Origin: Octopus vulgaris
Lineage: Eukaryota
Assembly (NCBI GenBank): GCA_951406725.2
Contig: OX597819.1
Coordinates: 91,326,001 to 91,390,000, forward strand
Reading direction: 5' to 3'
Length of the DNA stretch: 64,000 nucleotides
Shown: positions 3,546-62,520 of the stretch, one piece after another
Layout: each line of letters starts with the position of its first letter
Position numbering within the stretch: the first letter of the stretch is position 1
The notes under the pieces: generated by a model
Database searches by the model: none
Told to the model about the DNA's origin: nothing
What the model saw: the letters and a program-made list of their open reading frames with translations, nothing else
Translations under genes and position numbers: made by a program

Positions 3546-4749
3546 TAAGATATCATTATTGTAATTTTCTCCAAAAATTATCTTGAAAAATCATTTTCAG
3601 CTAATAATATATTTTATGTTTTTCATATATGTCTAGATATAGTTAAGCATAGAAAAGTGCTTTTTTTTATATATAATTTTTAAATGTTTTAATGTAATTT
3701 CAAAATGTGTAATTTGTAATTAAAAGAATCTTTTTAAGAGTCAAACATTGATTTAAGCACTAAATATTATAAGCAGAAAGTGATTATGCCAGGTTCAAAC
3801 CTTTTCCCTGGAGTTTTAGCAATGTAGGTATAATTAAGAATCAAAATAAAACTTTACAGTGCAGACCACACGAATAAAACATCAACATAAATATACCATA
3901 ATAGGAGATGGCAGAGACAATTAAAAAATGGCTGCATACTTCACACAGAAGTCAAAAGAATTTAATACCATGAACAAATCATTTTTACAATTTTTGTGAA
4001 ATCTGTCTGTCTGTGACATAATTTCTGGTTGGGTTCACAACTCTCCCTCTTTCTCCCATTGTATGTATGTTCACAGGCACACACATTATATTTCTCAGCA
4101 CAGTTGTCAAATATATTAAGCTACCACTTTTGAAAATAAAAATAAAAGTCTCAAAAAAGTTAATTTTGAAGTGAAAAAAAAAAATTATGAATCTCCATTC
4201 TTTGAATTCAACAACTAATAAATGAATAAATAATAGTTTTTCTTTGTTAAATTTTAATCAGTTGCTTTCTTTACCATACTACTAACATGTTCACATATGG
4301 TCAGTTGTATCATTCTCAGTAGAGTTTGGGGATCTGTCAAAGGTAAAGATTTTTGCCAGTTAAAGTCAATTTACTATACCAAATAGACCTAACAGACAGC
4401 CTAATTATAAAAATGTTAAATTCACTGAAAACATTGTCTACGTAGACGTTGTTGATTGTCAACATTTCCTGTCTGTGATTTGTTGTACATAATGTCATAT
4501 ACAGAAATAAAAATGAATAGAAACTAACTAATATATATTTTGACCTATTGACTGTTTCTTTTATTTCGATATTGTTTTACACTGTGAAGTATATTTGCCA
4601 TCTAAATATGGCTAACTACTAAGAGTGGATGTTACTGTAGCTTGTAGCCCCAGGAGAACATCTTCTCTAGCTGGCTATTGACACACTTTCTGTGCCCTAT
4701 CGGTATTTGCAAAGGGAGGTCATCCTTCCCTCGTCAACCTAAGTGATAC

Positions 4750-4792
4750 GCACGGACTGCAGTTTCTGGGTATTGACCTGTCATCAGCGCAC
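4750..4792 (-). ncRNA. Minimal type I hammerhead ribozyme
   Basis: Minus strand GUGCG-CUGAUGA-ca GGU caau ACC ca-GAAA-C UGCA G-UC-CGUGC; 5-bp stem I (2 GU), palindromic ACUGCAGU stem III; base of stem II mismatched. Confidence 0.75.
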
Positions 4793-4860
4793 GACAATCA
4801 CAGGTTTTCGATGGAAGGGTCCCAATGCAAATACATATATCCTTTTTCCAGTGATCTTGA

Positions 4861-4980
4861 AAAAGTGTTAACAAGCAATAATAAATCTCTGAACAAGGTA
4901 TAGACAGTAACTGCACGACAATGTGCAGTTACTGTCTATACTTTGTTCTGAGATTTATTATTGCTTGTTTTACACTCTTT
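4861..4980. repeat. Near-perfect inverted repeat (arms 4861-4916 and 4923-4980, 6-nt loop)
   Basis: acaagcaataataaatctctgaacaaggtatagacagtaactgcac / gtgcagttactgtctatactttgttctgagatttattattgcttgt. Confidence 0.95.
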
Positions 4981-42632: not shown

Positions 42633-42904
42633 TATAATAATAATAATAATAATAATATAGGTAAAATTAATTAATAATTTTACCAAGTAGTCAGTACGTT
42701 TAAAAAAAAACCTTTTTCGGTGAATTATACAAAATATTCTATAATTATATACATAATTATAATCAGGGGTCAGCTAAGTGGCTCACCATGTACTGAATTA
42801 GAAATAGACGCTAATGTCTTTTCAACTACCATAAAAATCTCTGAGACAATAACACACTTTTATGTAGGCAAAAAGAAAAATGATGAATCCACACGACTTC
42901 AATT

Positions 42905-42970
42905 AACCATGGACATGTTTCGAATTTAAAGTTAAATTATATTTACCTGTTATTCTCCTCAGTGTGGTAC
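42905..42970 (-). ncRNA. Minimal type I hammerhead ribozyme, copy 1
   Basis: ACCA ca-CUGAGGA-GAAU(26 nt)AUUC-GAAA-C AU G-UC-ca UGGU; palindrome ACAUGU. Confidence 0.7.
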
Positions 42971-43434
42971 TCCAAGTTATAAATTTGCAAGTGCTAGGAT
43001 TAAATATGCACGTGACCAAGCATTATCACATAACTAATATTCAACCGCACTCCCAAAAACATACAGCCGAATGTGATATATATTTATCCTTTATACCCAC
43101 AAGTGTTACAACCTATCCTGCAGAAAAACTGCAGTTTCGATCATGGAATAAATTATAATTTTAATAATAATATAGGGTAAAATTAATTAGTCAATTAATA
43201 ATTAATAATTTTACCAAGTAGTAAGTATGTCAAAAAAACCTTTTTAGGTGAATTATACAAAATATTCTATAATTATATACATGATTATAATCAGGGGTCA
43301 GCTAAGTGGCTCACCATGTACTGAATTAGAAATAGACGCTAATGTCTTTTCAACTACCATAAAAATCTCTGAGATAATAACACACTTTTTTATGTAGGCA
43401 AAAAGAAAAATGATGAATCCACATGATTTCGATT

Positions 43435-43500
43435 AACCATGGACATGTTTCGAATTTAAAGTTAAATTATATTTACCTGTTATTCTCCTCAGTGTGGGTA
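43435..43500 (-). ncRNA. Minimal type I hammerhead ribozyme, copy 2
   Basis: Core, stem II and stem III identical to copy 1, offset by 530 nt. Confidence 0.7.
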
Positions 43501-43632
43501 CTCCAAGTTATAAATTTGCAAGTGTTAGGATTAAATATGTATGTGATCAAGTATGTGTTGAGGCACTTAGCTGACCCCTGATTATAATTATGTATATAAT
43601 TATAGAATATTTTGTATATATATATGTATGTG

Positions 43633-43719
<87 letters not shown>

Positions 43720-44227
43720 ATACCTGAAATTTACAGAAAAACAAAAGCTGAAAACAGGTGTATAAACAACAAGCAGGTATATTAGTTTGACATTGTCCCC
43801 CCAGCATCGGTTGACAACCGACGCTGGTGTGTTTACATCCCCATAACCTAGCAATTCAGCAAAAAAGACTGATAGAATAAGAACTAAGCTTACAAAGAAT
43901 AAGTCCTGGGTTCGATTTGCTCGACTAAAGGCGGTGCTCCAGCATGGCCACAGTCAAATGACTGAAACAAGTAAAAGAATAAAAGAAAAAAGACAACGAA
44001 TATGTAATTTCATTTAATTAGTTAAGTAACTAAAGTCCCTTAAGGGATGCGACCGTCCTAGTACACTGGTTTATACCAGCATTCAGAGAAAACCAATTAC
44101 ATTAGTTTATCACCAAAATGTATAGTTATTTAAATAAACCTTTTTAAATAAGAAAATGAAGAAAATTAATAAAAATTTATGTACAGATGTTTTTATTTAA
44201 AGACATTCAAATAAATAACTTCCTCAT

Positions 44228-44330
44228 GAAATTTTCCCTGAGGATATACCCAATTCACTGGTTTCGAATATGGAATTTTATTTCTGAAATTAAAGAATTG
44301 CGCATGGAAACAGCTGTAGGTAGGAGTTTC
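44228..44330 (+). ncRNA. Minimal type I hammerhead ribozyme between inverted repeats
   Basis: GAAAUUUUCC-CUGAGGA(44238-44244)-UAUACCCAAUUC..GAAUUGCGCAUG-GAAA-C AGCU G-UA-GG ua GGAGUUUC; palindrome ACAGCUGU; 63-bp IR arms 44138-44200 and 44337-44399. Confidence 0.75.
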
Positions 44331-44399
44331 TATGCATTAAATGAAAACATCTGTACATAAATTTTTATCCATTGTCTTCATTTTCTTATTTATAAAGGT

Positions 44400-44443
44400 A
44401 TATATATATATATATATATATATCTCAAGAGAGACAGAGACAG

Positions 44444-55345: not shown

Positions 55346-55369
55346 CCTACACCTTTATATATATACCAA

Positions 55370-55905
55370 CCAATCGTGGCCGTTTGCTAGACTCCTCTTC
55401 CCCCTGTGCTGGTGGTACGTAAAAAACACCCACTACACTCACAGAGTGGATGATGTTAGGAAGGGCATCCAGCTGTAGAAACACTGCCAAACCAGACTTG
55501 AGCCTGGTGCAGCCTCCATGGCTTACCAGACCCTGGTCGAACCGTCCAACCCATGCTAGCATGGAAAACGGACGTTAAATGATGATGATGATGATATATA
55601 TATATCATCATCATCGTTTAGCGTCCGCTTTCCATGCTCGCATGGATTGGACGGTTTGACCAGGTCTGGGAAGCCAGGAGGCTGCACCAGGCTCCAGTCT
55701 GATCTGGCAGTGTTTCTACAGCTGGATGCCCTTCCTAACGCCAACCACTCCGTGAATGTAGTGGGTGCTTTTTACGTGCCACTGGCACAGGTGCCAGACG
55801 AGGCTGGCAAATGACCATGATCGGATGGTGCTTTTTACGTGCCACCGGCACGGGGGCCAGGCGAGGCTGGCAACGGCCACGAACAGATGGTGTTTTTTAC
55901 CATCC
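55370..55905. repeat. Tail-to-tail inverted pair of RTE-tail elements
   Basis: ~55370-55595 (+) is the reverse complement of ~55605-55820, separated by a short (TA)n. Confidence 0.9.
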
Positions 55906-58728: not shown

Positions 58729-59275
58729 TGTGTGTGTATGGAATTTTGTCAGAGAACAGGTTGAGGTTTCAAAGCGACAAAAATACCTTGACACAAATTA
58801 AATTTAAATGTTGAAGTGAATCTAACAGTTTTTGTGTGTTTTTTAAATGGCTTATAAACACCTGCAATGCTGCAATTGTATATATATTCTTTTATTCTTT
58901 TACTTGTTTCAGTCATTTGACTGTGGCCATGCTGGAGCACTGCCTTTTATTTGTACAAATTGACCATAGGAGTTCATCTTTGCAAACCTGGTGCTTATTC
59001 TATTGATCACTTCTGTTGAACTGCTAAGTGACAGGAACATAAACACACCTACATCAGTTGTTAAGCGATGGTAGTGGTGCCAAACACAGACACAAGCACA
59101 CACACATAAATATATACATATGTATATATATATATATATATGAGTTCAGTAAAAATTTAGATTCAGATGAATACGGTACTTAAGTTGAGGCACCAGAATT
59201 TAGTACGGTATTATCCATACAATTTCAAAGTATGGTGATTAAAATCAAAATAAGCAACAAGGCTATCCAGAGGTA

Positions 59276-59403
59276 ATGCAGTACGATTGTTTCATGCGAC
59301 TCCATTTAATTGAACAATGCAATCATTACATCAATTTAAAACATGCAGCTGAAGATTGCTCTACATTTTAAATTGATGTAATGATTGCATTGTTCAATTA
59401 AAT
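59276..59403. ncRNA. Hammerhead ribozyme split by an inversion with a 38-bp duplicated loop
   Basis: Plus strand AUGCAG-CUGAAGA (59343-59355); minus strand GAAA-C aauc G-UA-CUGCAU (59293-59276); perfect IR 59304-59341 / 59366-59403. Confidence 0.75.
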
Positions 59404-59722
59404 CGCTTGACAACTGGTGTTGGGGTGTTTATGTTCCTATAACTTAATGGTTCAAGAAAAGAGATTGATAGAATTAGTACCAGGCTTTAAAAAAATATGT
59501 ACAGAGTTCAATTTAAGTAAAAGATAATATATATAATATATGTATATATATTATCTTTTACTTGCTCCAGTCATTAGGTGGCACCACCTTGAAGAACTTT
59601 TAGTCAGATAAATTGAACTCTGTACATATTTTATTAAAGCCTGGTACTAATTCTATCAATCTCCTTTCTTGAACCACTAAGTTATGGGAACATAAACACA
59701 CCAACACCAGTTGTCAAGCGAT
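59402..59722. repeat. Inverted duplication of a SINE tail
   Basis: 59402-59515 is nearly identical to the reverse complement of 59609-59722. Confidence 0.88.
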
Positions 59723-62326: not shown

Positions 62327-62373
<47 letters not shown>

Positions 62374-62520
62374 CGAACTCAGAAACTTGGGGTTAGTAGC
62401 TCGCGCTCTTAACCACTATGCCCATGGGCATATGGCATAGTGGTTAAGAGTGCAGGCTACTAACCCCAAGATTTCAAGTCCAATTCCAGGCAGTGACCTG
62501 AATAATAATAATAAAAATAA
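62140..62520 (-). mobile_element. tRNA-headed SINE-like element carrying an HHR, with a head-to-head inverted second head
   Basis: Minus strand: A box ggcatagtggttaag, B box gagttcgatt, (AAT)n, then HHR; a plus-strand copy of the head at 62426-62520. Confidence 0.75.
62223..62268 (-). ncRNA. Minimal type I hammerhead ribozyme
   Basis: GACAC-CUGAUGA-au GCUG gaggguauau CAGC u-GAAA-CG-UU-GUGUU; palindrome AACGUU. Confidence 0.7.

Follow-up and report, generated by a model that had tools for sequence, protein, structure and literature searches.

In the 64,000-nucleotide stretch of Octopus vulgaris DNA analysed here (contig OX597819.1, positions 91,326,001 to 91,390,000; hereafter the window), the two parts of a hammerhead ribozyme lie on opposite strands, and the question arises whether a single ribozyme has been split by an inversion beginning at its own 5' edge, as was proposed in a preliminary description of this DNA. 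The perfectly duplicated 38-mer on which that proposal was built is indeed present: 59304-59341 and 59366-59403 form an exact inverted repeat of 38 bp, the runner-up within 59200-59450 being 7 bp long. Joining plus 59343-59403 to minus 59303-59276 through this repeat yields 89 nt with a perfect 6-bp stem I, CUGANGA and GAAA boxes and a GUA triplet, and the plus piece starts, as stated, at the ribozyme 5' edge. Compared with L036, a colinear copy occurring naturally, the reassembled sequence has 2 differences in 89 positions (+1 and +77); here +1 denotes the first base of stem I, and the predicted cut follows +83. The locus is composed of the following features.

59110..59141, no strand: TA-rich microsatellite, the insertion target, where the long arm has its 3' end; TA runs are also found at the ends of family copies
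59137..59341, minus strand: long arm, a 5'-truncated element 3' end (+24..+228, with optional tail); 95.6% identity to the colinear copy L033 over 205 nt
59276..59341, minus strand: hammerhead 3' part, from motif search and comparison with family copies
59293-59290, minus strand: GAAA box of the hammerhead 3' part
59288, minus strand: base +77 of helix III of the long arm, where the palindrome is broken; it differs from most other copies (four runs)
59284-59282, minus strand: GUA triplet, the predicted cut lying between 59282 and 59281
59281-59276, minus strand: 3' strand of stem I
59304..59341, minus strand: first copy of the shared 38-mer (+24..+61)
59342..59342, no strand: junction base fitting the natural continuation of neither arm
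59343..59403, plus strand: short arm, element +1..+61, without the usual +62..+125 end; 59344-59403 (+2..+61) is identical to L033 at 60/60 positions
59343-59348, plus strand: 5' strand of stem I, in the short arm
59349-59355, plus strand: CUGANGA box, in the short arm
59366..59403, plus strand: second copy of the shared 38-mer (+24..+61)
59402..59722, no strand: neighbouring unrelated repeat, an inverted pair (59402-59515 and 59609-59722, 96%) whose left arm lacks its outer end

The two arms are the only matches of the window to L033. Since both copy the same element positions, the pieces overlap by 38 nt, and the minus piece extends 139 bases further, to the element 3' end at ~59137, where its tail is 97% identical to the best relative. 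Hence, instead of one ribozyme divided by an inversion, there are two overlapping partial copies with their 5' ends together and one base between them. The locus most probably represents the 3' end of one Penelope-like retrotransposon in two copies, both 5'-truncated and placed head to head. The exact junction is found at a single place in the genome, and no further copy of this family was found within the window. An RNA reading through the locus is predicted to form a single long hairpin (-55.2 kcal/mol).

Colinear intact copies, for which a genome search had been advised, were found. Among 125 whole hammerhead motifs in the sampled loci the core boxes are intact in 85, and a palindromic helix III is retained in 56 of these. 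At stem I pair 4:86, 91/125 motifs have C-G and 18/125 have U-A, one compensatory change in a second subfamily. The family ribozyme, to judge by its motifs, matches the dimer-type hammerheads of Penelope-like elements (PLEs) as presented in the parts consulted of PMC4209133 and PMC6765202. In the long arm of the window the change at +77 abolishes the palindrome of helix III on which dimer folding relies, and the predicted self-duplex amounts to -0.1 kcal/mol for the window reassembly versus -12.0 kcal/mol for the family form. The free-energy minimum fold is not the hammerhead (-18.7 versus -13.5 kcal/mol when constrained), the unconstrained folds of the window and family sequences alike being of another shape, and an Rfam scan of the window up to E 1 returned no hammerhead family, only hairpin-driven miRNA matches.

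Several other features of the window are of related character. At 4748-4793 (minus) another family is represented by a type I hammerhead motif that is compact and complete, its helix III being palindromic; an inverted pair that terminates in a TA run (4860-4980) lies ~65 nt away. The region 42636-43618 is retrozyme-like: a unit of ~515-530 nt is repeated there in tandem (90%), hammerhead boxes are present on the minus strand, and an inverted partial copy is found at 43550-43618. The arms of an inverted pair at 44118-44419 have diverged (70%) and enclose a hammerhead-like motif at ~44232-44325 (plus), and this is possibly what the preliminary description counted as a second breakpoint inside a ribozyme. 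Other common repeats likewise form inverted pairs with microsatellite ends outward (59402-59722, 58877-59111, 55365-55829 and 62342-62520).

To which group the element belongs was judged from copies elsewhere in the genome, where one 24-mer of its 3' end has 3,366 exact matches. Walking upstream from the ribozyme leads through ~3 kb of non-coding sequence to a remnant of a GIY-YIG-type endonuclease and to pieces of reverse transcriptase (RT), all in the same orientation. L126 carries, in this order, an end piece in inverted orientation (-371..+125), pieces of RT, the endonuclease, ~3 kb non-coding, ribozyme and 3' end. Thus the combination of RT and GIY-YIG endonuclease that defines EN+ PLEs is present in L126, interrupted by stops, and absent from the window copy. 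The RT and endonuclease pieces match 711-aa single-ORF relatives (E 1e-36; 34% and 37% identity to P0003). Against Pfam, the family pieces had a GIY-YIG match below threshold (E 0.01) and none to RT, and no GIY-YIG match was obtained for the 711-aa relatives; the identity of the RT is based on motifs together with an Atlas lead (RVT_1 in 12-42% of the members of some matched clusters). A PDB sequence search with P0003 produced no match.

More specific characters point to the Hydra clade of PLEs. The DKG to DKT change is present (L126:6379-6984 minus), as are the CxCX5C linker, CxxC and CxH in the endonuclease (translations of L132, L108 and L124), and (TA)n insertion is found in the window and in family copies. 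In the region of the RWK motif L126 is without the N-terminus, and the relatives read RWR. The hammerhead lies in the terminal repeat, as in EN+ PLEs, and an inverted 5'-truncated copy with a one-sided tail, described as typical of PLEs (PMC8557442, in the part consulted), is found here too, the inverted partner being present in 76/155 copies and tail-less in 61/76. On these features the family fits the Hydra clade as defined in the same part of PMC8557442, and the family or its ribozyme may already be contained in supplementary files S1-S2 of that paper. An RT-endonuclease ORF in L085 was considered as the ORF of the family and rejected, being part of a different neighbouring element.

The family copies contain further peculiarities. 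The 3-kb non-coding region includes degenerate internal tandem repeats (~0.8-0.9 kb, 66-75%; L087:6240-8320 and L086:7441-8556) and, in the same loci, an A-rich antisense frame resembling a decayed ORF. Long asparagine-rich stretches separate RT from endonuclease (L132:5544-6143; L136:212-1420); such stretches have been described for rotifer Penelopes (PMC3846280, in part). Remnants of two other Penelope-like families were noted at L085:1200-3550 and L092:8345-8849, one of them joined directly to a copy of the present family.

The frequency of the head-to-head arrangement was estimated from sample A, i.e. 155 copies chosen by queries 3' of +85 (the 3' tail), with query-source loci and duplicates removed. 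The first genome search, biased to query-like loci, was excluded from the frequencies, and 29 loci from an upstream query were left out of all counts, a few of them serving as the reference panel. The arrangement, taken for a snapshot in the preliminary description, is not rare: it is published for PLEs and was met in the 76 copies of sample A that carry an inverted partner at the 5' end. Since about half of the sampled family copies thus lie back to back, the present locus is an ordinary one and, as far as its sequence can tell, an inactive fragment, neither strand of which would yield a whole ribozyme. The same numbers bear on the possibility that the locus is an assembly artefact at a hairpin. 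Neither junction is bridged among the listed contigs of 4 runs, the loose-end tables of these contigs hold only the natural continuations of the arms and no breakpoint spectrum, and the inverted structures of PLEs are a known source of difficulty in assembly (PMC8557442, in part). However, contigs break at high-copy repeats, and the same architecture recurs throughout the pairs of sample A with differing junctions and diverged arms, so that an artefact is extremely improbable.

The geometry of the pairs suggests how they arise. Partners end at +105..+135 in 61 of 76 cases, beyond +135 in 2, within +1..+104 in 4 and upstream of +1 in 9, and the arms have two preferred 3' ends, at ~+120-125 and +205-240. 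In 58 pairs consisting of a tailed and a tail-less arm, the tail-less arm reaches more than 10 nt further 5' in 24 and the tailed arm further 5' in 13, the two being within 10 nt of each other in 21. The 24 pairs of the first kind are not simple fold-back copies, and both arms are therefore likely to have been copied from RNA. Nevertheless, near-symmetric pairs are in excess (19/65 within 8 nt versus 5.1 in shuffles), so palindrome-aided joining or fold-back also happens; fold-back self-priming also explains the near-equal starts in both of these counts. At subfamily-diagnostic positions the arms of a pair mismatch in 8.7% versus 14.4% in shuffled pairs, a likeness that agrees with a single template. 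Arm 5' ends cluster a second time at -110..-134 (~22/155 main arms), which may mark a transcript start or a stall site or reflect residual divergence from the reference.

The two arms, their element positions and family, the RT and endonuclease remnants elsewhere, the pair frequency and the two preferred 3' ends being observed directly, the following course of events may be proposed. Both strands of a cut TA repeat would each have primed reverse transcription, and the two unfinished cDNAs would then have been joined, ends together. The outer 60 bases of the short arm and the neighbouring repeat's outer end would have been lost jointly, later or at insertion: the short arm stops at +61 with 2 bases common to it and that repeat, the left arm of which likewise lacks its outer end, and one deletion at this 2-base microhomology would explain both. 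The ribozyme seems split because it is located 40-230 bases from the start points, where many cDNAs stop. A reverse-transcription origin of the inversion, which the preliminary description had put forward, is thus retained as the most likely one, with both DNA strands primed; the part that made the ribozyme edge its cause is not.

A point against this explanation is that the short arm ends at +61, unlike the majority of partners and like the 4 of 76 that end within +1..+104; internal priming is possible at this locus. Classical twin priming on one RNA has to be weighed here: the second strand would have been primed at +61 via the 2-base match and copied to +1, while the first cDNA ran to +24 and the target DNA was deleted. 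In LINE-1 twin priming a 5' inverted piece is produced by second-strand priming, and the arms derive from adjacent parts of one RNA. The microhomology at the internal end of the short arm, the few other partners that end internally in TA runs (L269, L306) and the identity of the arms across their overlap would agree with such a course at the octopus locus. Yet the 38-nt overlap would require the same RNA stretch to be copied twice, most family partners start at a fixed terminal site, and the truncation of the neighbouring repeat at the same point is explained by a single later deletion. Moreover, the arms in this family, unlike those of LINE-1, overlap over long stretches, and terminal sites are usually the starting points of both. 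Twin priming is accordingly regarded as unlikely, and priming of both DNA strands at terminal sites remains the preferred explanation.

Whether the 5' edge of the ribozyme caused the breakpoint, through a structure-induced stall and template switch at stem I, was judged from the positions of arm ends in sample A (138 arms carrying the anchor of an anchored alignment) and in sample B (99 arms, the first exact pattern matches along contig C1). The first base of the short arm is +1 itself, +1..+6 and +19..+24 match in inverted orientation at 5 of 6 bases, and arms starting at +1/+2 were seen at several loci of the first, query-biased search. In the unbiased samples, however, no excess is found at -3..+3, where 1 of 37 ends (3.0 expected) and 0 of 29 ends (2.4 expected) fall, respectively; the junction of the locus is unique in the genome; and an apparent +6 peak of 14 arms proved to be an artefact of a second subfamily absent from the reference panel, gone after anchored alignment. 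A causal role of the edge is hence highly improbable. The recency of the event, which had been deduced from the perfect arms, fares no better: the identical 38-mer occurs in 19/125 unrelated copies, and over this stretch the arms are identical in 4/12 other pairs, so that recency is unsupported.

A different position of the ribozyme, the cut site, does attract the 5' ends of copies. The signal was first seen in sample A, where 15 of the 75 ends within +1..+96 fall at +81..+85 (3.3 expected), L176 being entered four times, which leaves 9 loci. In the hold-out sample B, 8 of 38 ends (7 loci) lie in the same interval, with 1.65 expected (Poisson P 3e-4); the region +90..+97 is also dense, with 7 ends of sample B in +92..+96. 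Genome-wide pattern counts, restricted to starts with all three preceding bases mismatched and including two control positions, agree with the samples and gave 20 starts at +84 (18 after removal of one insertion in an untruncated copy and of twins), 12 at +85, 8 at +87, 3 of which resemble one-base deletions, and 4 at +78. The +78 pattern is longer, and fewer exact matches are therefore expected for it. Arms beginning at the cut site make up a few percent, often both of a pair: in L402/L403, L176 and L319 both arms start at +84/+85. The perfect both-arms-at-cut pattern has no exact match in 416 loci, L402/L403 fitting it with one mismatch.

This excess is likely a footprint of self-cleavage in vivo, and run-off at the end of a cleaved RNA would be a reasonably probable explanation of the cut-site starts. 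Stalling of RT at helix III or stem I is an alternative, and several +81 junctions are equally well explained by 3-base microhomology. Immediately 3' of the cut there is a 4-base palindrome, at which symmetric joins were observed in 19 loci, as against 3 loci at the 8-base helix III palindrome, located 8 bases away from the former; the length of the palindrome alone is therefore insufficient as an explanation. In the second subfamily the 4-base palindrome is abolished by the stem I change.

The comparison with known systems, made against the parts of the cited papers that were consulted, places the octopus family among the following elements. With the EN+ PLEs of the Hydra clade (Craig et al. 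2021, PMC8557442) it shares the C-terminal GIY-YIG-type endonuclease with DKT, CxCX5C, CxxC and CxH, the hammerhead near the 3' end, TA-repeat targets, the inverted 5'-truncated partner and the one-sided tail. Hydra elements, however, tend to be <3 kb in all, whereas in the octopus family the non-coding stretch separating endonuclease from ribozyme already takes up ~3 kb, and L126 measures >6 kb from the RT piece to the 3' end, insertions included; the tail is ~85-120 nt versus 30-40, the helix II region is ~58 nt, and no intact ORF was seen in the sampled copies. Head-to-head inverted ends, with palindromes at many junctions, are shared with the Penelope of Adineta vaga, in which this arrangement is the most frequent one (Arkhipova et al. 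2013, PMC3846280). Self-priming was proposed there, in contrast to the many octopus pairs that are not simple fold-back copies.

The likely copying of both octopus arms from RNA agrees with what is published for Poseidon of Anolis, PAc (Frangieh et al. 2024, PMC11167929): its purified protein both cuts and extends the two strands, from two start sites, and needs no ribozyme cleavage to do so. Extension of both cut strands, two start sites, AT-rich targets and uncleaved RNA as the main template are likenesses to the octopus family; unlike there, the PAc ribozyme overlaps the ORF start. For PAc, a search for RNA-seq reads ending at the ribozyme cut site is reported to have found none, whereas the genomic copies of octopus have an excess of 5' ends there. 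Metazoan PLEs carry hammerheads of type I (Cervera and de la Pena 2014, PMC4209133) that likewise have a 6-bp helix I and a short palindromic helix III, described in the part consulted as suited to dimer cleavage; the octopus ribozyme departs from them in its long helix II region, and the window copy in its missing palindrome. Animal non-LTR retrozymes (bioRxiv 10.64898/2026.07.22.740005, in part) share the hammerhead and the link to PLE terminal repeats, but the octopus family has no short tandem non-coding unit and is tied to RT and endonuclease remnants.

Taken by itself, the locus leaves the existing picture as it was, since this head-to-head form of insertion has already been published for Penelope-like elements. 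The census of its family, on the other hand, bears on how head-to-head pairs form and on the role of the hammerhead in endonuclease-bearing PLEs, which is described as unclear (PMC8557442, in part). In the literature covered, neither in-vivo ribozyme activity nor two-RNA, two-strand priming was found for a coding PLE, nor was a cut-site excess of ends for genomic PLE copies. Because the excess of cut-site starts is countable, the role of the ribozyme becomes testable from genome sequence alone, on thousands of copies. It seems somewhat more probable than its opposite that the ribozyme of a Hydra-type coding Penelope cuts its own RNA in vivo and that two RNAs are held at one insertion site; if true, the octopus genome would record both ribozyme activity and two-RNA, two-strand priming.
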